A stretch of DNA of 64,000 bases from Cyanobacteriota bacterium (GTDB lineage: Bacteria > Cyanobacteriota > Cyanobacteriia > Cyanobacteriales > Nostocaceae). Location of the stretch: assembly GCA_046045965.1 (NCBI GenBank), contig JBJOKS010000008.1, positions 100,676-164,675 of the forward strand, given 5' to 3'. Each line of letters begins with the position of its first letter. The first letter of the stretch is position 1. The notes beneath the pieces were generated by a model that did no database searches, was not told the origin of the DNA, and was given only the letters and a program-made list of their open reading frames with translations. Made by a program: the position numbers and the translations under genes. Positions 6,838-61,381 of the stretch are shown here, in pieces.

Positions 6838-9669
6838 TTAATTTCCCTGCAAAGGAGCATTTAAAGCTTTTTCAATGCGATCGCGGGTTTCTAGTAAATG
6901 CGCTTTGGTATATTCATTATCTGACTTCACCCGTTTGAGTTGTTGGTCTAATTGTTTGAGTTTATACCATGCTAAAGTGCGAGCATCTTCTGGAACATCT
7001 ACTTTTCGTAATACCATCGCTGTTAAAAAGTTCACATATTGTCGTTGTAAACCCCGACGCAAACTAGAAATTTCTAATTTACCTTGTGGTTGTAAAACTT
7101 CTGTCCAAATTCCGGTTTGTAAAGTAGTAAATAATTCAGGCATAGTCAGTGCTTTTCCGGGTTCGCTTTTGAGTTCAATATCCTTCATCCGCGAAAGGCG
7201 ATCGCTGGAGAGTAAATCGCTCAAAACCGCACTCTGCACAAACAACACCAAATCATGAACAGGGAAATCTAAACGCCCCGTTACAGGTGTACTACCCCAA
7301 TGTCGCCAGCGGGAAGGTGCTAATTTATTCAGTAGTTCTGGTGAAAATTTCAGTGCATCTTCAGCAAATACATACTCTTGTAATGTCGTTAATGCCTGTC
7401 TTTGTTGTTCCACCGGAACTGCTACAAATGGTAATCTTCCTTTGTTTTCACTGGGATTAACACGGTAAAAAGACTGACCACCAACGTATTTAATAGTATA
7501 ACTTAATTGCTGCAAATAATTACCAAAAATGGTGCTAAATTGTTCAGTTAAATCGCTGTAATTTTCACCAGATATGGAATAACCATTATTTAAACGTTCC
7601 CACATCACACGGGAATTATCCAACTGCCAGCGAGAATAAACTAGCACATTACGGCTATTATCCCAAGGTGCAGATGTCGGATCAATCTCAGAAGTATCCT
7701 CATCAGGAGAATAACTCAACTCTGGTTGTTCTGATTGTTTAGCTATTGCTGCTAAAAAAGGTTTTTCTGCGATCGCACTTTTTGCCCCAAAATGAGTATA
7801 ACCATACTGTATTGCCCACATATCATAACTTCCCAACTGACTAGGAAAATAATCTCCCTGGACTGTACCACGAGGGGCTATATTGGGAGGAACATAATCC
7901 ATGACTGAAGCTGTCAAACCTTTAGTACGACTGATTTCTAGATTATTCATCTCCTCTGGTTGTAAGAGGTTACTACCGCGAAAATTATGCCGTAACCCTA
8001 AAGTATGACCAACTTCATGAGCAATAATTAAACGTAAATATTGATGAATATAATCTTTGATTTTCTCTTTGCTAGGAGTAGTATTTGCTAATAGTGACAT
8101 TGCCAAAGAACCAAAAGCAAATTGATTAGCAGATTCTATACCATAGCATAAATCATACTCTCCTGCTAATTTAGATAAATTGCCGATTAATCCCTTCTGA
8201 TTTTTATCACCTTTACTACAAAGGGGACGATTTTGCATCAATGCAGATAGGGAAGTTGGAGTTTGTGTTTGCTGGGGTAAAATAATTTGCCGATACTCAT
8301 TTTTTAAAGCTCTGACAAAACTAGCATCTACCAGAATATCTGCATCCAAAATTTCCCCATTCAAAGGATTAACACGGGATGGACCAAGAGCAAAATAACC
8401 ATCTACAGTATTAATCCAGCGAATGGTATTATATCTAATATCTGCCGCATCCCATGTAGCATTATCTGGCATTTGTTTAACTTCAATCGCATCCTTGAAT
8501 CCCGCCTTCAAAAAAGCTTGATTCCACATTAATACCCCTTCTTTAATAGCATCACGATATTCCCAAGGTACAGCGTTATCAATCCAGAAAACAATTGGCT
8601 TTTTCGGTGGAGAAATTGCAGCGGTAGGATCTTGTTTTTCCAAATTCCAGCGATTAATGTAACGGACAAAAGCATCATTGCGATCATTTATTGATAAATC
8701 TTGATATGCAGTAATAAAATATCCCACTCGATCATCTGCCAAGCGCGGTTGATAATTATTATTAGGTAGTTGAGAAATACTGTAATGAAGCTTGAGAGTA
8801 AAGCCACGACTGTCAGCCAGTACACCAAAATTTGGGTTATTACCACTACTGTTAGAATAATTGAAAATTGATTCAATTTCTATATTGTTGGGGAAAACTT
8901 TGGCATTACCAAAATATGATTGTTCTAAATTAGCAGCTAATTCTAAACTTGCAGATAATCCCGCCAAATCTGCCAGCAGTAAATCACCTAAATCAATGAG
9001 TATTGTTTTGCGTTGTGGATGAATACTTTTAATACTAAGATTGTAGAGAACAGAATCACTAAAAGAGCGAGCAAGGGAGCGAGATTGGGGATCACCTTCA
9101 CGAGTCCGAAAATTCACATTACGAACCACAAATTGTAAGTTATTATCTATGCGTTGGAAATAAAATAGAAAATCTTGCAATGGTAAACCACTATAAATTC
9201 CTCGTTCACCAATACCAGATTCTAAAGTTGCTGTCGCTAAGAAGTTTTTCTGGAGTTGTTCTGGTTGAATTTCTAAATAGATTTTATTAGTTTCTTTGTG
9301 GCGATAAAGAGTAAATATCCCTTCTAGTTTTTGACTATCTTTGACAACTTCATCAAATGCTTCCAAATCATCTGTTTTAGCTGGTTTAGTGCTTGAACTA
9401 GGTTTTTTTGTGGGCTTATTTTGAGTTTGAGCAATTTCCAAAAATGGTTGCTGTCTGGCTTTTTTTGGATCTGGAACAACCCACATAAAAGCTTGTTTTT
9501 GTACCTGTTTATTTTGATTAATTACCCATACTTGCGATGATGGTAAAGTTCCTGGAGGTGAAGTTTCCAGATTTTCCTTTGCTTTTGTCTCTAATGACTC
9601 AGCGTTAGCAGTTCCCATCCCTAAAAACAAACTATGTAACAAAACGATATAAAAAGTTAATTTTTTCAT
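6838..9669 (-). CDS. Secreted zinc-dependent metalloprotease (DUF5117/DUF4953, EcxA-like)
   Basis: Signal peptide, HEVGHTLGLRHNF zinc motif, SVMDY Met-turn. Confidence 0.88.
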   Translation of the reverse strand: MKKLTFYIVLLHSLFLGMGTANAESLETKAKENLETSPPGTLPSSQVWVINQNKQVQKQAFMWVVPDPKKARQQPFLEIAQTQNKPTKKPSSSTKPAKTDDLEAFDEVVKDSQKLEGIFTLYRHKETNKIYLEIQPEQLQKNFLATATLESGIGERGIYSGLPLQDFLFYFQRIDNNLQFVVRNVNFRTREGDPQSRSLARSFSDSVLYNLSIKSIHPQRKTILIDLGDLLLADLAGLSASLELAANLEQSYFGNAKVFPNNIEIESIFNYSNSSGNNPNFGVLADSRGFTLKLHYSISQLPNNNYQPRLADDRVGYFITAYQDLSINDRNDAFVRYINRWNLEKQDPTAAISPPKKPIVFWIDNAVPWEYRDAIKEGVLMWNQAFLKAGFKDAIEVKQMPDNATWDAADIRYNTIRWINTVDGYFALGPSRVNPLNGEILDADILVDASFVRALKNEYRQIILPQQTQTPTSLSALMQNRPLCSKGDKNQKGLIGNLSKLAGEYDLCYGIESANQFAFGSLAMSLLANTTPSKEKIKDYIHQYLRLIIAHEVGHTLGLRHNFRGSNLLQPEEMNNLEISRTKGLTASVMDYVPPNIAPRGTVQGDYFPSQLGSYDMWAIQYGYTHFGAKSAIAEKPFLAAIAKQSEQPELSYSPDEDTSEIDPTSAPWDNSRNVLVYSRWQLDNSRVMWERLNNGYSISGENYSDLTEQFSTIFGNYLQQLSYTIKYVGGQSFYRVNPSENKGRLPFVAVPVEQQRQALTTLQEYVFAEDALKFSPELLNKLAPSRWRHWGSTPVTGRLDFPVHDLVLFVQSAVLSDLLSSDRLSRMKDIELKSEPGKALTMPELFTTLQTGIWTEVLQPQGKLEISSLRRGLQRQYVNFLTAMVLRKVDVPEDARTLAWYKLKQLDQQLKRVKSDNEYTKAHLLETRDRIEKALNAPLQGN

Positions 9670-15807: not shown

Positions 15808-16090
15808 TAACTTCTTTAATTTAATCAATCTTGAGAAAAATATATATAGTGACTATATATTTTATAGTTCTGCAATAACTTAATGAGCAAGACTTAAACA
15901 AAAATCCCAAATTGGTATGAGGCTTGAGTAGATACAAATTCCCTGACCGACTTTAGCTTTAATAATTCCAACTCACACGAACTAAGCGATCAAGCCTCAG
16001 TCAAATTCTTTGGTAAATTCAGACGTACAACCCAGTTGTTAAATGAGAACCTGATTAATGTTTTTATGAGTCGTTTTTGCTATCGACAGC

Positions 16091-44119: not shown

Positions 44120-45202
44120 TTAGCCGTGAATAGCAGGAGCAAACAAAGCTACAGGTTGAATATCCCCAGCCGCTAAATCTAGGGGGAAGTTGTGAACGTT
44201 GCGTTCGTGCATTGTTTCAATTCCCAAGTTAGCGCGGTTTAAAACATCAGCCCAAGTATTGACTACAGCACCTTGAGAATCGAGAATGGAATGGTGAAAG
44301 TTCAAACCATTGAGGTTAAAGGCAAAAGAGGAGACACCCAAAGCAGCACACCAGATTCCAATTACTGGCCAAGCACCTAAGAAGAAGTGTAAAGCACGAC
44401 TATTGTTAAAAGATGCGTATTGGAAAATTAATCTGCCAAAATAACCATGAGCCGCAACAATGTTATAGGTTTCTTCTTCTTGCCCGAATTTGTAACCTTG
44501 GTTTTGGGATTCATTTTCGCTGGTTTCTCGCACTAAAGAGGAGGTGACTAAAGAACCGTGCATGGCAGAGAATAAAGCACCACCAAAGATCCCAATTACT
44601 CCTAACATATGGAATGGGTGCATGAGAACGTTGTGTTCTGCTTGCAGTACAAACATGAAGTTAAAAGTACCGCTAATTCCTAAAGGTAAACCGTCGGAGA
44701 AAGAACCTTGACCTATGGAGTAGACTAATATTACCGCAGTGGCAGCAGAAACAGGTGCGCTATAGGCGATCGCAATCCAAGGACGCATCCCTAAACGATA
44801 AGATAATTCCCACTGGCGACCTAAGTAACAGAAAATACCTATTAAGAAGTGGAAAATAATTAATTGGTAAGGTCCACCATTATATAACCACTCATCTAAA
44901 GTAGCGGCTTCCCAAATGGGATAAAAGTGTAAACCAATAGCATTGGAAGTAGGAACAACCGCAGCAGTAATAATGTTATTCCCATAGAGTAAAGAACCGC
45001 TTACAGGTTCACGAATACCATCTATGTCTACGGGTGGTGCAGCAATAAAAGCAATAACAAAACAAATGGTTGCTGTTAAAAGTGTAGGAATCATCAATAC
45101 ACCAAACCAACCAATATACATCCGGTTGTTAGTGCTGGTAATCCAATTACAAAATTTATCCCAAATATTGTTACTTTGGCTTTGTTGCAAAGAAATAGTC
45201 AT
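44120..45202 (-). CDS. psbA: Photosystem II D1 protein, divergent low-oxygen (D1'-type) isoform, 360 aa
   Basis: Start MTISLQQ; Mn ligands D170, E189, H332, E333, D342, A344 intact; G80A (IITAAVVP), T286A (IWCAALG), F158I, P162S, M172L, F186L. Confidence 0.92.
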
Positions 45203-45318
45203 AATTTTTAATTCCGAGGTTAATCGTTGTTCAAGGCAAGTTAACCTTATGTCCTTATTTAACTTTATGGTTATATAGTTTGTCAAGTAGATTTTCATAT
45301 TATTTTTAAATTATTTTT

Positions 45319-45331
45319 TCACCCTGGGTAA
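45319..45331. promoter_or_regulatory. Candidate ChlR-binding box
   Basis: TCACC-CTG-GGTAA, one mismatch to the recalled consensus TTMCC-N3/4-GGWAA, between divergent psbA and petC. Confidence 0.45.
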
Positions 45332-45565
45332 TAAACGGGGTGTAATCTTGACTGGGCTTGACTTTCACCTTCATGACAATGGAAAAGACGAAAATTCATT
45401 TGAGCGATCGCCAATAGGGGTTTTTGGGCGGATACCTTTGATATATCGAGAATTTACGACATTTATGCTCTTGAAAAGAGATTAAACTACTATTTGACTA
45501 AATTACTAAATAGTAACATTATAGAAATGTAAAGAATGTTTACTAAAGCTAAGAGGTGTAAATTT

Positions 45566-46099
45566 ATGTCAGAGAGTCTTTCTTTAGAAACTCCCTCCAT
45601 GTCGAGGCGACAATTATTAAACTTTCTTACAGGTGCAGTTGTGGCCACCACAGCCAGCAGCTTACTGTATCCTGCGGCTAAATTCTTTATTGCCCCTACA
45701 GAAGCGAGTGAAGATGGTTCTATTCTCGCCAAAGATATTAATGGAAATCTCATTCCTGCGAAACAGATTTTAGCTGAACCGGTGGGAAGTCGTGCTTTAG
45801 TGGCAGGTTTAGCCGCAGAACCTACCTACCTAACAGTACAGTCAGATGGTTCTTTGCATCCTTGGGGAATTGTTGATAACTGTACCCATTTGGGTTGTAC
45901 CTTTCCTTGGAATGCCAACGATAATCAATTTCAATGTCCCTGTCATGGTTCTCGCTATGATGCTGATGGGAGAGTAGTACGGGGTCCTGCACCGCTTCCT
46001 CTCAAACTGGTGGGTGTGAAGGTTGAAGAGGACTATATCCGCATTTCTCCTTGGACGGAAATTGACCCCCGAACTGGTGAAAAACCTTGGTGGGTTTAG
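45566..46099 (+). CDS. petC: Cytochrome b6f Rieske Fe-S protein, alternative isoform
   Basis: SRRQLL Tat motif, CTHLGC and CPCHGS boxes, [18 protein letters not shown]. Confidence 0.93.
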
Positions 46100-46170
46100 T
46101 AGTTTGATGTGATAGAGAGTTAAATCTGCGGTTTTTCTCTCTTTTCTACACTAATTCAGAACTGGATAAT

Positions 46171-46563
46171 ATGACTACAAATATGGCATCTACATCTTCT
46201 ATTCAATCATTTGTTACCAATATTTCCCCTACGGAATTTGCTAATTTACCTGAAAATCCCTTGCTAATAGATGTGCGTAGCAAGTTTGAGTATGGGATGT
46301 TTCACGCACCAGGAGCAATTAACCTCAGTTTACCACGGCTTTTAATAGGCATGATACCGGGTTTAAATCGCTGGCTTTATCCCCAATGGTTTCGGAATTT
46401 ATCCAAAGATAAACCTATTTTTTTGATTTGTTTGACCTCTCACCGCAGTCCCATTGCTGCTGAATATTTGGTTAAAGCAGGTTTTACAAAAGTCTTCAAT
46501 ATTAGCGGTGGGATGATGGAGTGGCGAAAATTGGGGCTGGAAACTTGTACTCAAAAGGATTAA
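46171..46563 (+). CDS. Rhodanese-like domain protein
   Basis: LIDVRSKFEY..HAPGA, CLTSHRS, ISGGMMEW. Confidence 0.85.
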   Translation: MTTNMASTSSIQSFVTNISPTEFANLPENPLLIDVRSKFEYGMFHAPGAINLSLPRLLIGMIPGLNRWLYPQWFRNLSKDKPIFLICLTSHRSPIAAEYLVKAGFTKVFNISGGMMEWRKLGLETCTQKD

Positions 46564-46568
46564 TTTTC

Positions 46569-47027
46569 ATGAAAATTCGACATTTTTCAACTGTAATTCT
46601 ATCAAGTCTGTGCATATTTATTTATGGCTTTTTTAGTGTTGGCTATGAAGCAATAGCTTTATCAGCAACACCGGAAATTCCTGTAGTTTCTACTGCTGTG
46701 GATAGTTATCTTAAATCCATTCCTGGAGATTATTACACTGTGGGGAAAGTGCCACAGTTAAAACAGATGCTAAAAGAAGAAGATGTTTTTTTGGTGGATG
46801 TAAGAGAACCTTTTGAATATGCCACAGGTCATATCGGTGATGCAATTAATATTCCCCTACGAACATTGGTAGAAAATCTCGATAAGATTCCCAAAAAACA
46901 GCCTGTAGTAGTTTATTGTTCTTCTGGTTATCGTTCGGCGATGGCAGTTATGTCATTACATCTTTTGGGTTATGAAAATGTGCGAGGTTTTCCACCTAGT
47001 ATGAATGGTTGGAAGGCAGCAAGTTAA
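46569..47027 (+). CDS. Exported rhodanese-like sulfurtransferase
   Basis: Signal/TM helix, VDVREPFEY..GHIGDA, YCSSGYRS. Confidence 0.85.
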   Translation: MKIRHFSTVILSSLCIFIYGFFSVGYEAIALSATPEIPVVSTAVDSYLKSIPGDYYTVGKVPQLKQMLKEEDVFLVDVREPFEYATGHIGDAINIPLRTLVENLDKIPKKQPVVVYCSSGYRSAMAVMSLHLLGYENVRGFPPSMNGWKAAS

Positions 47028-49608: not shown

Positions 49609-49857
49609 CTATAAATCCCGATGTTCGCAACAAGACTTTTCCTTGACCTCTGGTACTGGATCATAACCACCAGGATGGAACGGATGACAGCGTAAAATGC
49701 GCCAAATAGCCATCCAACCACCACGAAACACCCCAAACCGCTCAATAGCTTGGATAGCATACATCGAACAAGTCGGTTGAAAGCGACAAGTCGGGGGAAA
49801 CAGAGGAGAAATGAACAAGCGATAACCCTTAATTAACCAAATCAATAAAATTTTCAT
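49609..49857 (-). CDS. yidD: Membrane protein insertion efficiency factor
   Basis: [27 protein letters not shown]. Confidence 0.93.
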
Positions 49858-49908
49858 GCCCAAATCATTTAAAGTAGTATCCAAGTCCTAAAATCTTCAA
49901 TTCCATCA

Positions 49909-50616
49909 TTGTTGACTACATTTCCCAGTTTAGAATCTATTCTCCCATTGTGGCTGCAAATTTCCACAGCTGCGGCTTGGGTATTACTTGTCATCCTCAT
50001 CGCTTGGTTAGTCAGTCGCTTTACCAACAGCGAACCCGAAATCATCCGTAAAATAGTCCATATTGGCACAGGTAATGTAATTTTACTAGCTTGGTGGCTA
50101 AATATCCCCGCTATCGTTGGGATTACAGCTTCAATTTTAGGCAGTATCATTACTCTATTATCCTACATCTTCCCAATTTTGCCGGGAATTAATAGCGTCG
50201 GCCGCCAAAGTTTAGGAACTTTCTTCTATGCTGTGAGTATTGGGATTTTAGTTGGCTGTTTTTGGTATTTACAACAACCCCAATATGCAGCATTAGGAAT
50301 TCTAATAATGGCTTGGGGAGATGGACTAGCAGCTTTAATTGGGCAAAGATTTGGTCAACATAAATATCAACTTTTTGGCTCCAACAAAAGTTGGGAAGGT
50401 TCTTTAACAATGACTTTTATTAGTTTCCTGATTAGTCTGTTTATCTTACTACAAACACAAGGAAACACCTGGCAAACATGGCTAATATCAATAATCATAG
50501 CCATAGTAGCTACAGCCTTAGAAGCTTTTTCCTTTTTGGGGATTGATAATTTAACAGTTCCTATCGGTAGTGCAGCTTTAGCTTACGGCTTAACTCAAAT
50601 ACTGGTGCTTAATTGA
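49909..50616 (+). CDS. Phytol/polyprenol kinase family protein
   Basis: RKIVHIGTG, WGDGLAALIG, KSWEGS, DNLTVP. Confidence 0.9.
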   Translation: MLTTFPSLESILPLWLQISTAAAWVLLVILIAWLVSRFTNSEPEIIRKIVHIGTGNVILLAWWLNIPAIVGITASILGSIITLLSYIFPILPGINSVGRQSLGTFFYAVSIGILVGCFWYLQQPQYAALGILIMAWGDGLAALIGQRFGQHKYQLFGSNKSWEGSLTMTFISFLISLFILLQTQGNTWQTWLISIIIAIVATALEAFSFLGIDNLTVPIGSAALAYGLTQILVLN

Positions 50617-50926
50617 ATAGCTAATTACTAAGTTGTATATTGCTATATCCTCTCTAGCCTAGTATTGATAATATTAGCTATAGCCTCAAAAAACGTAAAA
50701 AGATATATAGATGTGGCAAATAAATTCAAAAACATCAAATATTAAATATACCCTCTCTCAGAGAATGACTATATCTGTAAAAATTAAAAGATTTTATATC
50801 TACTTTGAGAAGTAGAACTAATAAATTTGATTTCTATCCCTAGATTTATGAATTACTGAGCAAGAATGCTTATAGTTGGGTTGTTAGGTGGTGATTCACC
50901 TAATTTCGTAAGTGAGGCTAATAATT

Positions 50927-51307
50927 ATGTCCAATCAAATAAATGCGTCCGATTTGTTTATTGTCCTATCTGATCACCAACAAGAGTTTGTAACTGGTGG
51001 TGCTGATTTTGAATTAGCAGGTAGTAACTTCGCTAATAGATTAGCAAACCTGCAAGGTACGACAGCTTCGGGTCCTAATGGTAGCACTGGTAACTCCATC
51101 GGTACAAGTTCTGCTGTCAACACCGCAGCTCAAGACTTCTTAGGCTTGGGTACACCTATAGTTCCTCAAGTTGCTGCTTTGGGTGCTGCACCCGTTCTTA
51201 ATGGACAAACCGCACCTACAGGTCCTGGTGTTCCTGATGTTCCACTCGATGGTGGTGGTGGTGCTAGTGGTCCCTTCAATGGTGGTGGTGGTCCCTTCGG
51301 TGCCTAA
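50927..51307 (+). CDS. Double-glycine-leader secreted peptide precursor 1 (SGPNGS-type core)
   Basis: Leader MSNQINASDLFIVLSDHQQEFVTGG; GTGAGG SD; 126 aa. Confidence 0.85.
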   Translation: MSNQINASDLFIVLSDHQQEFVTGGADFELAGSNFANRLANLQGTTASGPNGSTGNSIGTSSAVNTAAQDFLGLGTPIVPQVAALGAAPVLNGQTAPTGPGVPDVPLDGGGGASGPFNGGGGPFGA

Positions 51308-51520
51308 ATCAAGCCTTTAATGAACCTTTTAACCATTCCCACAGGTGACTAAAAACATCAACTGTGACACCAGATGGTTTCATCCATCTAAATTTGAGAA
51401 TGGTACTTGGGGGTAATGAAAGAACCAAATACCCTGGTTCTTAATCATACCCCTCACTCAAATCTGCATAGAGATTTAGATTCTTTTATTTGGGATATTA
51501 CGCAAGTCAGGCTAACAATC

Positions 51521-51862
51521 ATGTCTTATTACACCATCATCTCCAATTCTTTTGCAGATTTATCTGAACAGCAACAGGAAAAGATCATTGGCGGCACAGA
51601 TTTTGAGTTATCTGGCAGCAATTTTGCTAACAGATTGGTCGTACTCAGGGGGTCTGTATCTTCTGGTCCAAATGGCAGTTTTTCAAATTCCTCTGGTCAA
51701 ATTTCAGAAGTCAATACCGCAGCCCAAGATTTATTAGGACTGGGTGCGCCATCTATACCTGATGTTCCTGCTCTGGGTTCTGCGCCAGTTCTTACTAGCT
51801 TACCAGCACTACCAAGAACAAGTTTGGCAGGTTTGGCAGGTTTGAGAAGATTAGATGATTGA
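51521..51862 (+). CDS. Double-glycine-leader precursor 2 (paralog of precursor 1)
   Basis: Leader MSYYTIISNSFADLSEQQQEKIIGG; core shares DFEL.GSNFANRL..SGPNGS..VNTAAQD.LGLG with precursor 1. Confidence 0.85.
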   Translation: MSYYTIISNSFADLSEQQQEKIIGGTDFELSGSNFANRLVVLRGSVSSGPNGSFSNSSGQISEVNTAAQDLLGLGAPSIPDVPALGSAPVLTSLPALPRTSLAGLAGLRRLDD

Positions 51863-51900
51863 GACGATTTGAAAATTTGAGTTTAGTGAGGCTAACAATC

Positions 51901-52212
51901 ATGTCGTATCTAATAATTGCATCTGAATGTTTTTTTGAGCTATCTGATCAGCAACAAGAACTATTAACTGGTGGTAATCAACCTCAAATCAGCAATAACA
52001 ATTTTTATCAAAAAGATGAAAATATAACAGAGACAAACAGCAATAATCCACTAGGCAAGGTTTCTCAAACTAATACCGATTTTACTGATGTCAATAGTGG
52101 CGCACAATCTATGTTGTCATCTAATACTCCCAAGGCTGGTCCATTTACATCGAGTAACAATTTAGTACCCAACATTCCTATATCAGTCAACAGACCACTA
52201 GGAATGTTTTAA
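51901..52212 (+). CDS. Double-glycine-leader precursor 3 (Asn-rich, diverged from 1/2)
   Basis: Leader MSYLIIASECFFELSDQQQELLTGG; NNF..NP.G..VNSGAQ aligns with precursors 1/2. Confidence 0.82.
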   Translation: MSYLIIASECFFELSDQQQELLTGGNQPQISNNNFYQKDENITETNSNNPLGKVSQTNTDFTDVNSGAQSMLSSNTPKAGPFTSSNNLVPNIPISVNRPLGMF

Positions 52213-53031
52213 GGGATTTACAAAAATGTGAACAATTAATGAACAATTAATTATGGTACAAACTTTAATTACATCAAGTCCCATCATGCAGTTATTTTTA
52301 GCAAAACAGCAATTGGGGATTATTTTTGCTTCCCATACTTTACTTTAAAAACTGCTATGGGCAAAGCTAAAAAAGCAAATTTTATACAAAATTCATTTTT
52401 ATTGGCTAATTCAGTTAATTTAAAACTCAATCTGCAAGTAGTTATCTGGAATCTTCTGTTTGTAATTAGGAAGGGGGGAGAGGAGATTCTGACTACTCGC
52501 TCAACGTAAGTGAGGACTTTGAGGGAGTTTGAGCGTTCTCCTCGGTTTTTTCTCAGCGTTGCCCACGTCAGAGATGTAAAGAAAAGTTTTGGCTATGGTC
52601 AGCGTTTTCTTTTCTTATCCCCCACTAATGATTATAGAGGATTCTTCACCATCATGTTTACTATTTTGAGCAACATATTTTATTCTGGCTGTGTTTAGTT
52701 GATTCCTCCCTTTTCATGATCCTGTATTTGGTAAAGTTGATACTTTGGATGTGATTTATTTTCACCAAAAGATAGAGACAAAGATACCTTTTTTGAAGGT
52801 TATCTGTTGAGATGTGATGCGGAATAATCACCGGACTAGAAAATGCTGAACTTGGCTAGTTAGTTGATGATGTTTCACAAAATAGAACGAAAAAACAACT
52901 TTTTACCACTATCTGAAGACATATTACCTCAGACAGTTATTTTTCCGTGTTCTGGGATTTCCAATCAAGTTATGTGGAGTTATTTAAGCCCCTTAGATAT
53001 CAGACTCGATATGAGATAACCCTCATTTTTA

Positions 53032-54585
53032 TTGATGTTTCAATCCAAAAGGTGCAACACCGTGGACTCTTTACGCCGCTATGAAGACTATGTTTGGAAT
53101 GGATCTCATGATCCTGGTTCTGAACATCTGCATTCAGTTGAAGTTAATGAGTTTCTGCCCCAAATTCATAACTGGACTAGCATTGGTTTGGGGGTAATGC
53201 TGACTATCTTTGTGGCAGGTGTAGGTTTGACAACTGTACTTACTTATAAGGTAACAGTAAAAGTTCCCGCCACTATTAGACCAGTAGGAGAACTACGGCT
53301 AGTTGAGTCGGCTATTTCCGGCCAGGTGCAAAAGATTGTAGTGAAAGATAATCAGGTATTGAATCAGGGAGATGCGATCGCTTACGTTGATGATTCTCGC
53401 CTACAAACACAAAAGAGGCAACTTCAAAGCAGTATTCAACAAGGTCAATTACAACTGGTACAACTTGATGCTCAACTAGGTGAAATCAATACCCAGATTT
53501 TGGCACAAGAAAATTTAAATAACCGCACAATTATAGCTGCACAAGCTGAGTTAGGTGGTACTCAACGCAACTTTGAAGATCAAGAAATTAAAGCTAATGC
53601 AGAAATGCAACAAGCAGAATTGGCTTTGAGATTTGCAAATTCACAACTTGCACGTTTGCAACAAGAAGGAGTGTTAAAAACAACTATAGAAGAGGCACAG
53701 ACAGCTTTAAATCTGGCTAAGTTACAAAGAGATAGATTGCAAGCGATCGCTGATTCTGGGGCAATATCTCACACTATGCTCGAAGAAAAACAACAAGCTG
53801 TTAAATCTGCCAGAGCCAAGTTAGAACAAGCTAAAAACAATGCTAAAACTCTTCTGGAGGAAAAACAACAAGCTCTAGAAATTGCTCAAACAAATCTATA
53901 TAAAGCGAGAACAGCTATCAATCCTAATAATTCTGCCGTCATTATCGCAGCGGAACGAATTAAACAAGAACAAGCTAGAGGTGAATCTACTTTATCCGCT
54001 TTAAAAAAAGAACTCCAGACTCTATTACAACAACGTCTGGAAATTCAAAAGCAACTTATTCGCACTCGTCAAGACTTACTACAAACAGAAACTGATTTGA
54101 ATCAGAGCATAATTCGCGCACCTATTACTGGCACATTACTACAATTAAAACTTCGTAACCCTGGACAAGTAGTACAACCCAGTGAAGCTGTTGCTCAAAT
54201 CGCTCCTCTCAATGCTCCTTTACAAATCAAGGCTTATGTACCTGCTCAAGAGATTAATAAAGTAGAACCAGGTCAAAAAGTCCAAATGCAAGTTTCCGCT
54301 TGTCCTTATCCAGATTACGGTACTCTCAAAGGCATTGTCAAAAACGTTGCTCCAGATATTTTACCAGTTGCACAAACCCAACCTCAAAATAATTCAGCCG
54401 CAAATATTCCCCAGGTTAATGGCTACGAAGTAACTATTAAACCAGAAACATTATATGTGGGTAGAGGCGAAAATAAATGTTATTTACAACCAGGAATGCA
54501 AGGACGTACTGATATTATTTCCCGTGAAGAAACCGTACTACAATTTATTCTCAGGAAAGCTAGATTAATTACTGATTTTAATTAG
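53032..54585 (+). CDS. HlyD-family secretion adaptor (start uncertain)
   Basis: NEFLP + TM helix, IRPVGELRLV, long coiled coil, IRAPITG, VSACPYPDYGTL. Confidence 0.92.
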   Translation: MMFQSKRCNTVDSLRRYEDYVWNGSHDPGSEHLHSVEVNEFLPQIHNWTSIGLGVMLTIFVAGVGLTTVLTYKVTVKVPATIRPVGELRLVESAISGQVQKIVVKDNQVLNQGDAIAYVDDSRLQTQKRQLQSSIQQGQLQLVQLDAQLGEINTQILAQENLNNRTIIAAQAELGGTQRNFEDQEIKANAEMQQAELALRFANSQLARLQQEGVLKTTIEEAQTALNLAKLQRDRLQAIADSGAISHTMLEEKQQAVKSARAKLEQAKNNAKTLLEEKQQALEIAQTNLYKARTAINPNNSAVIIAAERIKQEQARGESTLSALKKELQTLLQQRLEIQKQLIRTRQDLLQTETDLNQSIIRAPITGTLLQLKLRNPGQVVQPSEAVAQIAPLNAPLQIKAYVPAQEINKVEPGQKVQMQVSACPYPDYGTLKGIVKNVAPDILPVAQTQPQNNSAANIPQVNGYEVTIKPETLYVGRGENKCYLQPGMQGRTDIISREETVLQFILRKARLITDFN

Positions 54586-54641
54586 TCATTCGTCATTAGT
54601 TTAGTTACGCAATCTTTCTGTTTTGGAAACTTGAATTGTTT

Positions 54642-56810
54642 ATGTTTAATATATTCAGACATCGAAAAAAATACCAATCTATTTTACAAGCTAGTGAAGA
54701 AGACTGTGGTGCAGCTTGTTTAGCTTCCATTTGCAAATATTACGGACGCTTCTTAACCATAAATAAAAGCCGAGAAGCCGTAGGAACAGGACAACTAGGA
54801 ACAACTTTATTAGGTTTAAAACGCGGATCTGATAATTTAGGATTCAATGCTAGAGCCGTTAAAGCCTCTCCAGAACTAGTAGATAGAATCACAGAAATCC
54901 AACTACCAGCTATTATTCATTGGCGCGGTTATCACTGGGTGGTTTTATATGGAAAAAAGGGTAAAAAATTTGTTATTGCTGATCCATCTGTAGGTATTCG
55001 CTATATCAAACGCGAGGAATTATTAGCAGCTTGGAACGGAGTCATGCTCTTATTAGAGCCAGATGCAGAGCGTTTTTCTCAACAACCCCAAGAAAAACCC
55101 CACGGTGGTTTGTTACGCTTTTTTATGCGAATTCTGCCCTATCGGGGATTGCTCACTCAGGTTTTGATGATCAATATTATTCTGGGTATCTTGGCGTTAG
55201 GATCTCCTGTTTTAATTCAAATACTCACTGATGATGTCTTAGTCAGGGGAGATATTCAGCTACTCACAGTAGTAGTAGCCGCTGTTGTGGTCATGACTTT
55301 ATTTAGTAGTAGTTTACAAGTCATACAAGCTACTATGATCGCTCATTTTGGGCAACGATTACAATTAGGATTAGTCTTAGATTTTGGACGGAGAATATTA
55401 CAATTACCTTTGAGTTATTACGAATCTCGTCGCAGTGGTGAAATTACTAGCCGATTGGGTGATATTGGTGAAATTAATCAATTAATTTCTCAGGTAGTAG
55501 TGCTATTACCTAGCCAGGTTTTTATTGCCATTATTTCCTTTTGCTTGATGCTATTTTATAGTTGGCAATTAACAATCGCAGTGTTGATTTTCGCTGCTTT
55601 AATGACTCTATCGACCCTGCCATTTTTACCCATACTGCAACAAAAAACCCGCAGTCTTTTAGTTTTAGGAGCAGAAAATCAAGGTGTATTAGTAGAAACT
55701 TTTAAAGGCGCTCAGGTGATCAAAACTACTAATGCTGCTCCTCAATTTTGGGATGAATTTCAAAGCCGTTTCGGTCGTCTAGCTAATCTCACTTTCAGCA
55801 CAATTCAAATTGGAATTATTAACGGTACTGTTTCTAAACTCCTCTCTACTCTTGGAGGTGTAATTTTACTGGGTATAGGCAGTATGTTAGTAATTAACAA
55901 CAAATTAACTATTGGTCAAATGCTGGCTTTTAATGCCTTACAAGTGAATGTCTTAGCTTTAATTGGTACTTTGGTGGGATTAGTAGATGAATATTTCCGT
56001 TCTCAAACCGCAATTTCTCGTTTACTAGAAGTTATTGATGCCACACCGGAAGTAGTTGGAGGTAGTCAAAAGCCGATTGTACAAATCTCAGGTGATGCGG
56101 ATATTCATTTTTCTCATCTGACATTTCACCATGCAGGAAGAGTTGATTTATTGGAGAATTTCTCTCTGAAGCTTCCCGGTGGAAAGGTAATTGCTTTAAT
56201 TGGTCAATCAGGTTGTGGTAAAAGTACCTTAGCAAAACTAATTGCAGGTTTATATGAGCCAACTTCAGGTAATATCCGCATTGGGGTTTTTAATATTCAT
56301 GATCTTTCCCTTGACTGTTTGCGACAACAAGTAGTTTATGTACCCCAAGAACCACATTTTTGGAGTCGTTCAATTTTAGAAAACTTTCGTTTAGGAACAC
56401 CTGCTATTCCTTTTGATCAAATTGTTCAAGCTTGTGAAATTGCCGATGCAGATGGTTTTATTAGTCAATTACCTAATAAGTATCAAACTGTGTTAGGAGA
56501 ATTTGGTGCAAATCTTTCTGGTGGACAAAGACAAAGATTAGCGATCGCACGGGGAATACTCACCAATCCACCTATTTTAATTTTAGATGAAGCCACCGCA
56601 GGATTAGATCCAGTTAGTGAAACTCTTGTCTTAGATCGATTGTTGGAATCTCGCAAAGGACAAACCACAATTTTGATTACCCATCGTCCCAGTGTAGTTA
56701 ATCGAGCAGATTGGATAGTGTTAATGGATAAAGGCCAAGTCAAACTCCAAGGTAGTATAGAAACTTTTCTGTCTCAAAAAGGAGAGCATTTAAAATTCTT
56801 AACCATATAA
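54642..56810 (+). CDS. Peptidase C39-containing ABC transporter (PCAT)
   Basis: Q.SEEDCGAACL catalytic Cys, HWVV His, IADP Asp; TMD; GQSGCGKST, LSGGQRQR, ILDE. Confidence 0.96.
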   Translation: MFNIFRHRKKYQSILQASEEDCGAACLASICKYYGRFLTINKSREAVGTGQLGTTLLGLKRGSDNLGFNARAVKASPELVDRITEIQLPAIIHWRGYHWVVLYGKKGKKFVIADPSVGIRYIKREELLAAWNGVMLLLEPDAERFSQQPQEKPHGGLLRFFMRILPYRGLLTQVLMINIILGILALGSPVLIQILTDDVLVRGDIQLLTVVVAAVVVMTLFSSSLQVIQATMIAHFGQRLQLGLVLDFGRRILQLPLSYYESRRSGEITSRLGDIGEINQLISQVVVLLPSQVFIAIISFCLMLFYSWQLTIAVLIFAALMTLSTLPFLPILQQKTRSLLVLGAENQGVLVETFKGAQVIKTTNAAPQFWDEFQSRFGRLANLTFSTIQIGIINGTVSKLLSTLGGVILLGIGSMLVINNKLTIGQMLAFNALQVNVLALIGTLVGLVDEYFRSQTAISRLLEVIDATPEVVGGSQKPIVQISGDADIHFSHLTFHHAGRVDLLENFSLKLPGGKVIALIGQSGCGKSTLAKLIAGLYEPTSGNIRIGVFNIHDLSLDCLRQQVVYVPQEPHFWSRSILENFRLGTPAIPFDQIVQACEIADADGFISQLPNKYQTVLGEFGANLSGGQRQRLAIARGILTNPPILILDEATAGLDPVSETLVLDRLLESRKGQTTILITHRPSVVNRADWIVLMDKGQVKLQGSIETFLSQKGEHLKFLTI

Positions 56811-56839
56811 ATTTTTCCCTAGTGTGAGGAGTAAAAAGC

Positions 56840-57154
56840 GTGTCTGAAAACTTTACCGCCAACCATGAAAACTGGTTCTTTAACTTATCTGAAGCAGAGC
56901 AAGAAACTCTAGCTGCTGGACAATCTCAGAATATGCTCGGTAAAACTGATTTGTTTTTTCAGAATACTAACATTGAAACTGAGGCAGATAGAAACTTAAA
57001 TATAGGAGGTGATTCTGATAACCAAAGGACAAAATATCGCTTATCTCAAATTACAATAGGTTCATCTATGACCTTTTTTATTCCTGATATTAATTCAGGT
57101 GTACAGGGATGGAATAACTTACTTAATACTTTTTTGGGGAAATTATTTTCCTAA
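56840..57154 (+). CDS. Precursor 4 with variant leader (ends AAG)
   Basis: GAGGAG SD, GTG start, FFNLSEAEQETLAAG; directly after the PCAT. Confidence 0.75.
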   Translation: MSENFTANHENWFFNLSEAEQETLAAGQSQNMLGKTDLFFQNTNIETEADRNLNIGGDSDNQRTKYRLSQITIGSSMTFFIPDINSGVQGWNNLLNTFLGKLFS

Positions 57155-57475
57155 TTAAAGCAATTTGCCAGAACAGGTATTACACATCTTATATATTATA
57201 TATATTGTGGGTTAGGCATCTTGCCTAACCTGTTTAGAAAATTCAGATGAAATAAGCTATAAGATTGAGCAATTATCAATCATAAGGCTTGGTTCATTTG
57301 GGTTGAGATACTCTTGCGCTATTAATCATATTAATTGCCGATATATTACATACATCGCAAGATAGAAAAATTTCCCATACATTTACTACCAGAGGATATT
57401 TAAATTATAAAAAATTGCAATTATAAAAATAACATAGGTTGATTAGAACCTATTCATAAATTGAGGCTAACAATC

Positions 57476-57694
57476 ATGTCAAATGAAAATATGACATCTG
57501 ATTTACTTGTGGAGTTACCGACAGAGCAACAACAGCTTCTGTCAGGAGGACAAAGGTATCCAGTAATCTGCTATGACTACGAACCCTATTTTAGAGGTGG
57601 TAGAGGTCGTGGCGGTCGTGGCGGTCGTGGCGGTGGAGATGTCGATGTTGATGTCGATGTTGATGTCGAGAGAAGACGTAGGAGGGGATTTTAA
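57476..57694 (+). CDS. Precursor 5 (RGG / (DV)5 / poly-Arg core)
   Basis: Leader MSNENMTSDLLVELPTEQQQLLSGG; 72 aa. Confidence 0.85.
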   Translation: MSNENMTSDLLVELPTEQQQLLSGGQRYPVICYDYEPYFRGGRGRGGRGGRGGGDVDVDVDVDVERRRRRGF

Positions 57695-57991
57695 GTGGAC
57701 AAAACCCAAAAATTGGGTAGCCATTTAATTTCAATCTAATTTCAATCTAATTTCAATCTGGCATTTACTAGAGGAAAGAGAAAGCTTATATAACTAGCTC
57801 AAAATGATTAGTTTTGAGTGAGTGTTTCTACTCTCAGATGTTCTCTTGAAATATTAAATTAAACTTCTAGATAAAACTTCTAGATACTAGCAAGAGAACT
57901 ACTAGAGATAACCCTGATCTTTCTCTTTCCTCCTTCGTCTTTATCAAAAAGTAAACAATGCTAACAAGTGCAGTAAGTGAGGCAAATAGTT

Positions 57992-58192
57992 ATGTCTAAG
58001 CAAAATATCACAGCTGATTTATTTGTGAATTTAACCGCAGAGCAACAGGAAGTTATATCCGGGGGAAATTGCGGTTATTCTCCTTGTTATAAACCCAAGA
58101 AATGCTGTGGAGAAGACAAAGCTTACAAGGAATATACATCCTGTTCTTGCTCTGATAGCTACCCAGGTGTTGATGATTCCGATGGTTATTAG
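57992..58192 (+). CDS. Precursor 6 (6 Cys, 6 Tyr core)
   Basis: Leader MSKQNITADLFVNLTAEQQEVISGG; 66 aa. Confidence 0.85.
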   Translation: MSKQNITADLFVNLTAEQQEVISGGNCGYSPCYKPKKCCGEDKAYKEYTSCSCSDSYPGVDDSDGY

Positions 58193-58591
58193 CAATAGTT
58201 CTAGATAGGCTAATTCAATATATAGGAGTCCGGTTTGATTCCTCAAATGACTCTTTAGGGCGGGGAATAGGGAATAGATAAGAATGGAACTTCCTGCGGA
58301 CAGAATTTTTGCAAAAATAAAATATAAGTCCTATAGCCATTCTAAATTAGTCGTAAATATAAAAATTCCTAACTTCTTTAAAAGTTGGGAATTTCCTGGT
58401 GTAGTGTAGTACAAATAATCCGAATTTTATAAATCAAATATGAGCAGTAATTTCAATTAATTTGTTTAGGTCTAAAGGCTGAATTTATAAAAATTATGTT
58501 CTAACTAATGAATCATTAATTTTAGCAAAAAGAGGTTTATAAAAAGATTATTGGTGTATAACACCTATGAAAAAAGTGAGGTTAAAAAATC

Positions 58592-58816
58592 ATGTCCAAT
58601 CAAAGCATTACTTCTGATTTACTTGTGGAGTTATCCACAGACCAACAACAGCTTCTGTCAGGAGGACAAAGAAGGAGAAGAAGAGGAGGTAGAGGCAGCT
58701 TTGGTGGTGGTGGTGGTGAAGAATGGAGCTGCTTGGACTGCATCCCCTTAGATGATTTTGGCGATGGCGGGTTCCAAAGAGGTGGACGTAGAGGTGGACG
58801 TAGAGGCCGTAGATAA
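58592..58816 (+). CDS. Precursor 7 (Arg/Gly-rich with CxxC)
   Basis: Leader MSNQSITSDLLVELSTDQQQLLSGG; 74 aa. Confidence 0.85.
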   Translation: MSNQSITSDLLVELSTDQQQLLSGGQRRRRRGGRGSFGGGGGEEWSCLDCIPLDDFGDGGFQRGGRRGGRRGRR

Positions 58817-59133
58817 GGTCATATCGATGTTGCTTTTTTAATGTTGATGTCAATTTCGATAGAAGATGTCAAAGATTTTAAGTGGAAAAATCCAGGAATT
58901 GGGTAGCTACTTAATTCCCATCTGGCATTTACTAGAGGAAATAAAAAGATTATAAACCATCTCAAAATAATTAAGTTTTGAGAGAGTTTGGGTAGAGTCA
59001 ATGTTCTCTTCAAGCATTACATTAAACTTCCAGATAATAGCAAGAGAACTACTAAAGATCACCCTGATATTTCAACTTCCTCTTTCTTTCTAATCACAAG
59101 GTAAATAATTCCAGTAAGTGAGGCAAAAAAATC

Positions 59134-59454
59134 ATGTTGAATCAAAACATTGCAGCTGATTTACTTCAGGAGATATCCACAGAAGAACAAGAACTTCTGT
59201 CCGGAGGTAATTATCAGGACCCATCCCGTCGATACAAGGGCAGGGGCAGGGGTCAGAACCAGAAGCAAACTCAGTTCATCAATGTGATCGTCCCTCAGCC
59301 ACAAAATCCTTATGACGATGGCGGCATCGGTGGCGGTAACGGTGGCGGTAACGGCGGTAATGGCGGTAATGGCGGTAATGGTGGCGGCGACGATGAGGGC
59401 GAACGTGGCGACATGATGAAAGGAGGCTGCATGGGCCTTGGCTATGGACGCTAA
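59134..59454 (+). CDS. Precursor 8 (Gln-rich then GGN-repeat core)
   Basis: Leader MLNQNIAADLLQEISTEEQELLSGG; 106 aa. Confidence 0.85.
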   Translation: MLNQNIAADLLQEISTEEQELLSGGNYQDPSRRYKGRGRGQNQKQTQFINVIVPQPQNPYDDGGIGGGNGGGNGGNGGNGGNGGGDDEGERGDMMKGGCMGLGYGR

Positions 59455-59866
59455 GGAAGTCCTAGTCCTGCTTACAGAGGGGCGTTACTTTTAAGTTGGC
59501 ACTGTCCACAAAGCTAAGTCACCCCCTAGTTTAAACTCTTGAATTAGTAAATAAAGGAGAAAACTTAGAGAATTTATTCAATACAAATTGCATCAAATTT
59601 TGAGAATATTTCGGGATTCTCCTTTATTCTTTTCAGAGATTAAATCAAAAGTGCAGATAACAGAAAAGTAAAGGCTATTTATAGCAGTTACTTTTCTCCT
59701 GCACCTTAATTACATTAATTTATTTACTTCTAAAGATAGAAATTATAAATGTTAGCTTCTAACTAGAGAATAATTGCATTTATAAATACTAAGTTTATAA
59801 GAAAAGTAGGGTTTAGGTTGATCGCACAGATGAACCACCTTAGTAAACCAATTGAGGCCAACAATT

Positions 59867-60133
59867 ATGTCAGATCAAAACATTAAATCTGATTTAGTTC
59901 AGGATATATCCACTGAAGAACAGGAACTTCTATCTGGTGGTCACTGGGGACGCTGGGGCGGTGGACCAGGTTGGGGACGCTGGGGCGGTAGTCCAGGTTG
60001 GGGACGCTGGGGCGGTAGTCCAGGTTGGGGACGCTGGGGCGGTGGACCAGGTTGGGGACGCTGGGGCGGTGGACCAGGTTGGGGTCATCCCTGGAAAGGA
60101 CATCACCATCATGGCCATGGACGATGGTGGTAG
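59867..60133 (+). CDS. Precursor 9 (WGRWGG[G/S]PG x5 plus His-rich tail)
   Basis: Leader MSDQNIKSDLVQDISTEEQELLSGG; 88 aa. Confidence 0.87.
   Translation: MSDQNIKSDLVQDISTEEQELLSGGHWGRWGGGPGWGRWGGSPGWGRWGGSPGWGRWGGGPGWGRWGGGPGWGHPWKGHHHHGHGRWW
59945..60084 (+). repeat. 27-bp coding tandem repeat, 5 copies
   Basis: TGGGGACGCTGGGGCGGT(GGA/AGT)CCAGGT repeated contiguously. Confidence 0.95.
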
Positions 60134-60487
60134 TGACCTGGACAAATCCACAAAGTAAATAGACTTCCAATTCTTGTGGGTTGAGCGGTAAAAGAGCAAT
60201 AGTAAAATGTTTTGATGTAAGAATTCAGGAGTCAGGAGTCAGGAGTCAGAATATTTGTTTGTAGCACAGAGATACGGAAGTACGTTTTTTCCATCAATTA
60301 TCAAGAATAACTCGAAAACTCTGATTCATTCTGTAGGCGTAGCCGTGCCGCAGGCTATCCTGTATTCTGTATCCTGAATCCTTACGTTTTGATTTGCTAC
60401 TTACTCTTTACCTCTTAACCTTTTCTCCGATACCAAGGAAGGTTGTTTGTATTAATCTGAGAAGTATTGTCAAACATGGCAAAAATC

Positions 60488-61381
60488 TCAAACTGATAGC
60501 GCACCAATCCAATCCTGTAAAATCGGATTTACCAATTCAGGAGCTTCATCTTGGGGACAATGTCCCACTCCTTCCAGAGGAATAAATTTTTGTACCTGGG
60601 GAAAATTGGCTAACTCTCTACCTAAATCTATTGGTTCCCAAGGGTCAGCATTTCCCCATAAAATAATTGCTGGGCAAGGTAGTAAGGGTAAAAGGTCTTC
60701 AGGTAAGGGTCCACTAGAATAAGCCGTGAAAGCCAAAAATACCCCCGCAGCACCAGGATCACTTGCTGGTTTCATCAGCATCTCTACCAACTCATCTGTC
60801 ACTGTGTCCCCATTGGCATAAGCTTGGAGAAGAATTTTTTTAACGGTTTTAGGTTTTGCTAGTTGACTAAAAAAGAATTCACCAACTCCTGGAATTGATA
60901 AAAGCTTTTGTAAAATTGGCGCTCCAACACGTTTTGTCCAAGGTAGAGTTAACCGTTTGCGATCGTGTAATAATCTCAAAGAACAATTGAGTAAAGCAGT
61001 TCCCAAAGCTATATCTGGGTTATTTACCGCAGCTTGCATGGCGACAATACAACCAATGGAATTACCTACTAAAAATGCAGGTTCTTCCACAACTTGCCGA
61101 CAAAAATCTGCTATTTGTTGTCCCCAGGTTTCTAGGGTGTAGGTTATTTTCTCTCCAGGTTGGGGTTTAGCAGAACCACCAAAACCAATCAAGTCAATGG
61201 CATAGACCCGACAAGTTTCTGCTAAAACTGGTATATTTTTGCACCAGTGTCCCCAGGATGCACCAAAGCCATGCACCAGAATTACAGCAGGTCCTTGAGT
61301 ACCTTGAGTTTGGTAACAGATGGGGAAACCTTGCCAAATCCAGGTTTTGCTTGAGGTAAATACATTTTTAGAAGTTGTCAT
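60488..61381 (-). CDS. Alpha/beta hydrolase (pheophytinase-like subfamily)
   Basis: VHGFGAS, DLIGFG, GNSIG, GHCPQDE. Confidence 0.9.
   Translation of the reverse strand: MTTSKNVFTSSKTWIWQGFPICYQTQGTQGPAVILVHGFGASWGHWCKNIPVLAETCRVYAIDLIGFGGSAKPQPGEKITYTLETWGQQIADFCRQVVEEPAFLVGNSIGCIVAMQAAVNNPDIALGTALLNCSLRLLHDRKRLTLPWTKRVGAPILQKLLSIPGVGEFFFSQLAKPKTVKKILLQAYANGDTVTDELVEMLMKPASDPGAAGVFLAFTAYSSGPLPEDLLPLLPCPAIILWGNADPWEPIDLGRELANFPQVQKFIPLEGVGHCPQDEAPELVNPILQDWIGALSV

Follow-up and report, generated by a model that had tools for sequence, protein, structure and literature searches.

A tryptophan- and glycine-rich repeat peptide at the end of a double-glycine leader array in Nostocaceae, a possible building block of a surface matrix

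What would a cyanobacterium do with a peptide that consists almost entirely of glycine, tryptophan, histidine, arginine and proline and is encoded by a tandem repeat? This question is raised by a small gene in the window, by which we mean the whole stretch of 64,000 nucleotides of a Nostocaceae genome analyzed here. The initial annotation treated the peptide alone and proposed an exported metal-binding, UV-absorbing, self-condensing or membrane-active product, but the gene is one slot of a conserved and already catalogued cluster. In this study, we tentatively propose that it encodes a putative secreted, disordered cationic peptide that helps to build a surface matrix under stress or in dormancy, in the manner of EbfG.

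The precursor gene (59867..60133, + strand) encodes 88 amino acids followed by TAG, is the last gene of its array, and matches the leader profile with 47 bits. Its predicted mature core of 63 residues (59942..60130, +) has a net charge of +7, a mass of 6.95 kDa, a pI of about 12 and the composition G27 W14 H7 R6 P6 S2 K1, and it is predicted to be disordered; Asp and Glu are absent, as are Cys, Thr, Ala, Asn and Ile, and there are only two Ser. Five copies of a 27-bp unit coding for WGRWGG[G/S]PG (59945..60079, +) are followed by a His-rich tail with a C-terminal Arg-Trp-Trp (60080..60130, +), so that one His is N-terminal, six lie in the tail and none in the repeat unit. Tandem Repeats Finder (TRF) places the repeat at 59945-60084 (period 27, 5.2 copies, 96% matches, no indels), and only codon 7 varies between the copies, being GGA in copies 1, 4 and 5 and AGT in copies 2 and 3. 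The initial description of the core, with its 14 Trp, seven His and no acidic residue encoded by near-perfect 27-bp repeats, was therefore exact. The copy number of five is the value of the assembly, as none of the assembled contigs listed from sequencing runs spans the repeat. A recent expansion, also suggested initially, is supported by the closest relative, of the same genus (L095, the same sequence as P0002), which has two copies of a 30-bp unit against the five of 27 bp here and in which the N-terminal His of the core is replaced by Asn. When 40-residue windows (step 5) with at least 8 Trp and at least 14 Gly were sought, this stretch was the only one among 75,067 six-frame segments of the genome, which is more than chance would give.

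The AlphaFold2 (AF2) model of the precursor shows no fold (mean pLDDT 50.6, pTM 0.15), as expected for a Gly/Pro-rich chain. No Pfam family was found for the query at E<=0.1 or at E<=1, and a PDB sequence search with the family profile gave no match at E<=1. The best feature score in the ESM Atlas was 0.75 ("putative Bacteriocin"), and the structure rows there derive from a model of pLDDT 0.29.

The first 25 residues form a double-glycine leader (59867..59941, +; GG at residues 24-25), recognized by alignment and by the leader part of the CTB family profile NF038167. A ribosome-binding-like GAGG (59854..59857, +) lies 9 nt 5' of the ATG and also precedes the sibling and orthologous genes. Because the leader is common to eight neighboring genes and GAGG stands before the ATG, we take the frame 59867-60133 to be correct. 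Shadow frames over the repeat at 59937-60158 (+), 59883-60170 (-) and 59930-60199 (-) were considered and rejected, as they have no leader match and the repeat units change in relatives. The low-confidence AF2 model places a helix at leader residues 16-23. In the leader alignment Gln is invariant across the family at position -7, differing from the Ile/Leu of the published consensus (PMC3140520). The match of the query to NF038167 covers only residues 1-25 and reaches 15.8 bits, the cut-off being 32; thus the query shares the leader of the CTB family bacteriocins, but its core is unrelated and, by sequence, it is not a member of that family. Synonymous exceeded nonsynonymous divergence in the leader (pS/pN) in comparisons with L002 (0.25/0.04), L096 (0.19/0.07) and L114 (0.59/0.11), and was 0/0.02 against the nearly identical L095.

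Parts of the region 56800-60400 are contained in 14 sequencing runs, three of them RNA, and four of the runs were compared with the window. Contigs of the RNA-library run X8 cover 59820-59969, 59987-60043 and 60055-60244 with 0-1 differences, the one listed (60097) being synonymous. They are not evidence of transcription, since they are assembled contigs and RNA run X6 covers intergenic DNA too; the high depth at 60217-60260 stems from a dispersed 7-mer repeat. A promoter and terminator scan gave no signal above shuffles.

The query is the ninth and last leader-bearing gene around an HlyD-family adaptor (53032..54585, +; Pfam HlyD_3, E 1.7e-19; TIGR01843 below its cut-off) and a C39-peptidase ABC exporter of the short type (54636..56810, +), which matches Pfam Peptidase_C39, ABC_membrane and ABC_tran above cut-off. 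The exporter has no N-terminal extension and carries Walker motifs as well as Cys24, His100 and Asp116, which from the C39 motifs we take to be its catalytic triad. Three CTB family precursors precede the adaptor: the first (50927..51307, +; 88 bits to NF038167, cut-off 32) with a conserved core, the second (51521..51862, +; 75.6 bits), and a third that is Asn/Ser/Thr-rich (51901..52212, +; 53 bits). The CTB cores have a mean column identity of 69% over 24 rows, and the core of the first was modeled as a long beta-hairpin of small residues (strands 10-22 and 29-41, 13 residues each, pLDDT 64), for which Foldseek gave no match at E<=0.001 and none in the PDB. Two CTB genes of a relative (L009:1944-2600) are apparently frameshifted, by decay or by assembly error.

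Six precursors, the query included, lie 3' of the exporter and match NF038167 in the leader part only, below cut-off. As read from their sequences, precursor 4 (56840..57154, +) has an AG-type cleavage site and a core conserved in sequence; precursor 5 (57476..57694, +) combines an RGG block with a run of alternating Asp and Val and a tail of Arg; precursor 6 (57992..58192, +) has a core rich in Cys, Lys and Tyr; precursor 7 (58592..58816, +) has Arg/Gly blocks flanking an acidic, Cys-containing middle; and precursor 8 (59134..59454, +) has a Gly/Asn repeat core, also found by TRF. The pattern of precursor 5 is kept in L001, L016, L103 and L179, and it recalls designed self-assembling peptide amphiphiles.

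The cluster has a fixed chromosomal location beside pyrH-frr. On its left lies a membrane protein gene (49909..50616, +) that has no family match, abuts the hydrolase at sites where the cluster is missing, and is presumably phytol-kinase-like; on its right lies an alpha/beta hydrolase gene (60488..61381, -; Pfam Abhydrolase_6) that is present with or without the array. Both are outside the cluster. Farther upstream, at 44120-47027, a gene taken to be a divergent psbA copy adjoins a putative Rieske petC and two rhodanese-like genes; this region looks to us like a low-oxygen D1 cluster. Against the whole genome the leader profile gave 13 matches, nine here, three at a second exporter and one orphan. 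The second exporter cluster, on contig C15 (L013:5600-12300), comprises two near-identical acidic cores, a third precursor, an HlyD and a sensor/regulator-like gene pair, and the orphan, near 16067 (-) of contig C7, has a Gln/Pro/Gly core.

The leader and the exporter motifs make it very probable that the precursor is cleaved after GG and exported through the C39 exporter and HlyD, so that the exported peptide of the initial annotation is supported by the intact cluster. ORF lists and family scans of the cluster revealed no modifying enzyme, and no LanM, SurA or second, peptidase-less ABC transporter. A modified RiPP such as a lanthipeptide or an azole-containing peptide was thus rejected, the core itself having no Cys or Thr and two Ser.

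Such arrays have been catalogued in cyanobacteria since 2011. Wang, Fewer and Sivonen (2011) described group III "bacteriocin" clusters, among them asr1202-1204 of Anabaena and Aazo_0070-0083 of Nostoc azollae, with a short C39 exporter, HlyD and tandem GG precursors (PMC3140520), and the gene order in the window matches theirs. A short-type C39 exporter, an adjacent HlyD and a short GG-leader precursor near the exporter, the features of group III, are all found here. The window also holds a YidD gene at 49609-49884, YidD being a family that we take to be DUF37. It corresponds to the DUF37 gene beside the Aazo_0070-0083 cluster (PMC3140520). The last gene is strongly basic in Table S3 of the same source, namely Asr1204 (68 aa, pI 12.3), Ava_0625 (12.0) and CDS20 of N. 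punctiforme (12.0), and the core of Asr1204 as printed in PMC12267927 is rich in Gly, Trp, Phe and Arg. In one relative (L195) the terminal core at the same site differs from the printed Asr1204 by one residue, and the exporter is 80% identical to that of the window; this ties the window cluster to the asr1202-1204 cluster. Judged from these matches, the window cluster is a group III cluster whose counterpart in Anabaena PCC 7120 is alr1200-asr1204, and the annotated small gene is real and an extreme variant within a catalogued kind, differing from the other catalogued last genes in its 14 Trp, its five copies of a nine-residue unit and its His tail.

To place this variant among its relatives, loci were anchored on the flanking hydrolase (14 regions, the best 80 of 273, and 110 regions chosen among the matches listed, with 529 more lying outside the listing). 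This gave 205 stretches including the window, 198 of them with the hydrolase end; leader matches lay beside it in 75, or 68 distinct arrays after removal of identical ones, and were absent from 123, nine of which had less than 1.5 kb of flank. A compositional class, defined after the data had been viewed as Gly>=20%, aromatic>=15% and acidic<=5%, comprises 60 of the 201 precursors and is present in 49 of the 68 distinct arrays. A class gene is last in 44 of the 68 arrays, and in 36 of the 52 that have the exporter in view and at least two genes (14.8 expected), a count that is descriptive since kin are not independent. The query has the most Trp (14) of all class cores, 37 of which have at least 12% Trp; in many members Trp gives way to Tyr or Phe.

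For the most part the class is a single gene lineage in which the core is rewritten but the composition kept. When 177 leaders of at least 25 bits were each compared with the nearest leader less than 93% identical in another array, that leader was also of the class for 47 of 58 class leaders, against 14 of 119 other genes, and this pattern points to the single lineage. In 51 of the 58 distinct class cores TRF detected repeats; their periods span 6-54 bp and are multiples of three in 51 of 51 cases, compared with 46 of 47 for other cores and 4 of 10 for intergenic controls. Such periods preserve the frame. The variation in repeat number across relatives that the initial annotation proposed to examine is indeed free, but the repeat unit itself changes as well, so that what is conserved is composition, not sequence. 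A polyproline-II helix with a Trp face, conceivable here because Trp recurs at every third residue of this unit, was rejected, as family units of 4, 5, 7, 10 and 11 residues break the register. In L025, P0033 and P0040, Gly-Tyr blocks are followed by Pro-Pro-Tyr-Tyr blocks, and sibling cores of this Gly-Tyr and Pro-Tyr-Tyr type recall the Bacillus spore-coat protein CotT in composition. In the literature searched, whose coverage leaves out most subscription journals, no description of the compositional class of the terminal slot was found.

Among the genomes searched, the distribution is confined to a single cyanobacterial family. A profile of 23 W-rich precursors was matched by 14 of the 17 genomes from the own family, but by none of the 283 from other families of the order; it matched 174 cluster representatives at E<=0.001, and 46 fell into the class among the 148 parsed of the 150 listed. 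The 12 matches to named homologues were in Sphaerospermopsis, Anabaena, Halotia and a Nostocales MAG. The exporter is free of stop codons in 60 of 60 full-length matches (duplicates included), and Trichormus azollae (L017), a fern symbiont with an eroding genome, has exporter, HlyD and W-rich gene intact. Of the 25 loci in which both flanks could be seen, nine lack the whole cluster between the same flanks, then 0.4-2.4 kb apart (L020, L041, L063, L065, L172, L192, L193, L198 and L199). The terrestrial colony former Nostoc flagelliforme is one of the nine, which include four named Nostoc records. The cluster is thus dispensable in several lineages. In small genomes of 3.2-4.1 Mb (L101, L105, L173) a single His/Trp/Tyr/Cys-rich leader peptide lies beside the hydrolase, with no exporter in the 6.5 kb covered.

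It seems, then, that the peptide could be a material rather than a messenger. The neighboring C39 ABC exporter would cut the leader and free an unmodified Gly/Trp/Arg peptide, which may serve as a sticky building block of a cell-surface or matrix layer under stress or in dormancy. Trp, Tyr and Phe together with Arg would act as stickers through pi-pi and cation-pi contacts and Gly and Pro as spacers, and the partners bound by the peptide may be polyanions, for example eDNA, acidic exopolysaccharide or acidic blocks in its siblings; under such binding, selection would hold the composition and repeat number would drift. The His tail would be an addition peculiar to its lineage and may contribute cross-links that depend on pH or metal. 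Where selection acts on composition and leaves repeat number free, a material or a nonspecific membrane-active peptide is to be expected, whereas a ligand of a receptor or a metal site of fixed geometry is not.

We favor the material because composition is conserved under free repeat turnover and because the tested cyanobacterial precedent is a matrix system. The ebfG/pteB cluster of Synechococcus elongatus is needed for biofilm, with EbfG4 located at the cell surface and in the matrix and EbfG1-3 forming amyloid in E. coli (PMC4997328, PMC9981879). The array in the window resembles EbfG1-4/PteB in its group III architecture, its small GG-leader peptides and its proposed matrix role, but its cores have no sequence relationship to EbfG1-4 and the amyloid motif A-Phi-N-I-Pi is absent from the query core, whose content of Gly, Pro and Arg points to disorder or coacervation and not to cross-beta structure. 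Alr1201 is 55.8% identical to PteB (PMC12267927). Moreover, the absence of a conserved immunity gene and of a modifying enzyme in the cluster, the assembly-prone patterns of the siblings (alternating Asp-Val runs, acid/basic blocks and the long beta-hairpin of small residues), the retention of the intact cluster in a plant symbiont, and the response of the orthologous cluster to biofilm growth and desiccation all argue for a material. With regard to that response, asr1202 is up 11-fold in Anabaena biofilm, alongside akinete markers, and rises too in the data on desiccation, salt and selenium (PMC13156569).

There is also evidence against a surface or matrix role. The ortholog of the terminal gene, asr1204, is not among the biofilm-regulated genes, and the differential-expression supplement of PMC13156569 contains no occurrence of asr1203, asr1204, alr1200 or alr1201. 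Asr1204 is low in identity to EbfG1-4 (14-27%), and while the asr1202-1204 cluster has been named as a candidate ebfG equivalent, the asr5139 cluster was preferred by the same authors, who called for mutants (PMC12267927). The class is missing from 19 of 68 arrays and the cluster from some colony-forming Nostoc. Finally, Sphaerospermopsis and Anabaena, which are mostly planktonic, keep the cluster, and such retention is not predicted by a plain role as biofilm glue.

A narrower version of this proposal, which we regard as speculative and rather unlikely as it stands, would make the array a putative peptide toolkit of the akinete envelope, a convergent counterpart of the spore-coat proteins of Bacillus. 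Akinetes are the resting cells, comparable to spores, of heterocystous cyanobacteria. The scaffold would consist of CTB hairpins. A coat, coacervated and open to cross-linking, would be made of the Gly/aromatic/Arg, Cys/Lys and acid-base block peptides, with selection acting on composition and not on sequence. The restriction to the own family, the retention in Trichormus azollae and the induction of asr1202 with akinete markers and in desiccation are consistent with it, as are the sibling cores that recall CotT. It would explain why the array is confined to the family and why akinete formers, planktonic or symbiotic, keep it, an association that is confounded with phylogeny. Search listings of the akinete literature yielded nothing on this cluster.

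Of the roles suggested initially, self-condensation and membrane activity are the two that survive. The best alternative, which we judge less likely than the material, is an unmodified cationic antimicrobial or anti-fouling peptide that would permeabilize epiphytic bacteria or fungi as part of a cocktail delivered by one transporter, and that may also aggregate in a microcin-like way. The net charge, the Arg/Trp-rich core, the aromatic C-terminal residue of 53 of the 60 class cores, and the patchy presence and hypervariable cores known from conflict systems all fit this alternative. A precedent is armadillidin, a peptide of 47% Gly with six GGGF(H/N)(R/S) repeats and without defined structure; at 2-10 uM it damages the membranes of many bacteria and so kills them (PMC5031766). 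Like armadillidin and shepherin, the query is linear, cationic, about 45% Gly, repetitive in aromatic and Arg/His residues and without fixed structure, and some family cores repeat GGFRR-type units (L007); unlike these animal and plant peptides, to which it has no homology, it derives from a GG-leader precursor in a bacterial array. However, no conserved ORF that could confer immunity lies behind the terminal class gene (the longest same-strand ORF there is below 30 aa in 33 of 42 arrays), so that the immunity gene typical of class II bacteriocins and microcins was not found beside the precursor at this cluster. The fixed site beside pyrH-frr and the intact retention in the plant symbiont also speak against a weapon, as does the variation, which sits in the number and unit of the repeats, not in a target-binding surface. 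The EbfG proteins are without antibacterial activity according to PMC13188072, the same source in which Acinetobacter microcins are described as both killing and building biofilm. Matrix and antimicrobial roles need not exclude each other.

A signaling or developmental, pheromone-like peptide, or a surface pigment absorbing UV-B, is improbable. C39 exporters also export peptide pheromones, and the other exporter cluster of this genome is followed by a sensor/regulator-like gene pair; yet receptor ligands need a conserved sequence, whereas here sequence drifts and composition stays, and this cluster has no regulator. The computed molar extinction of the core at 280 nm, 77,000, would suit a pigment, but Trp absorbs near 280 nm and little at solar wavelengths, and 23 of the 60 class cores have less than 12% Trp. 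The UV screening that had been suggested initially is therefore unlikely, the more so as Tyr or Phe takes the place of Trp in so many members.

Still less probable is a secreted peptide whose function rests on binding Cu, Zn or Ni through the His cluster. In vitro the His tail of the query is, from general chemistry, a probable ligand of Cu, Zn or Ni, and seven His, six in the tail and one at the N terminus, as well as His-rich tails (at least four His) in 12 of 60 class cores, could be taken to favor such a role. PMC12267927 (Table S6) gives predicted FurA and Zur boxes upstream of asr1202, though none for asr1203 or asr1204, and alr1197, which lies three loci upstream of alr1200, is under the control of Zur (PMC6103462). 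Fewer than four His, however, are present in the other 48 class cores, the repeats are free of His, and the N-terminal His is Asn in the closest relative. A Fur/Zur consensus had at least three mismatches throughout 50000-61000; far from the cluster, a palindrome of this type is matched with one mismatch at 8750-8764 (+) of the window. The prion protein octarepeat, to which the peptide had been likened, is similar in that its short tandem repeat also contains Gly, Trp and Pro, but the unit here has nine residues instead of eight, lacks His and has no Pfam match; Prion_octapep (PF03991) did not match the query at E<=1 and matched 1 of 23 family members (E 0.013). The likeness is thus compositional and not homology, as was stated initially, and with His-free repeats and a His tail in a minority of members, copper binding of the prion type as the main function is not supported.

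That the peptide is a drifting, nonfunctional by-product of leader duplication and repeat slippage, as its simple repeats, its putative expression and the dispensability of the cluster might suggest, is very improbable in view of the frame-preserving periods, the pS above pN in the leaders, the slot and composition conserved across genera, and the intact exporter.

The slot that this peptide occupies has been catalogued since 2011, and it is the class-level pattern that is of use: across the family, a set of exported peptides of low complexity keeps its composition constant while the repeat unit changes freely. Work on coacervates or antimicrobials could draw on the natural series as a library of sticker-and-spacer peptides. 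If the akinete-envelope version is true, these arrays would supply the protein components of the envelope and offer access to the resting stage from which blooms are seeded. The class occurs in bloom-forming and symbiotic cyanobacteria, and since its ortholog Asr1204 is genetically tractable, whether "bacteriocin" arrays are weapons or building material may be put to the test.
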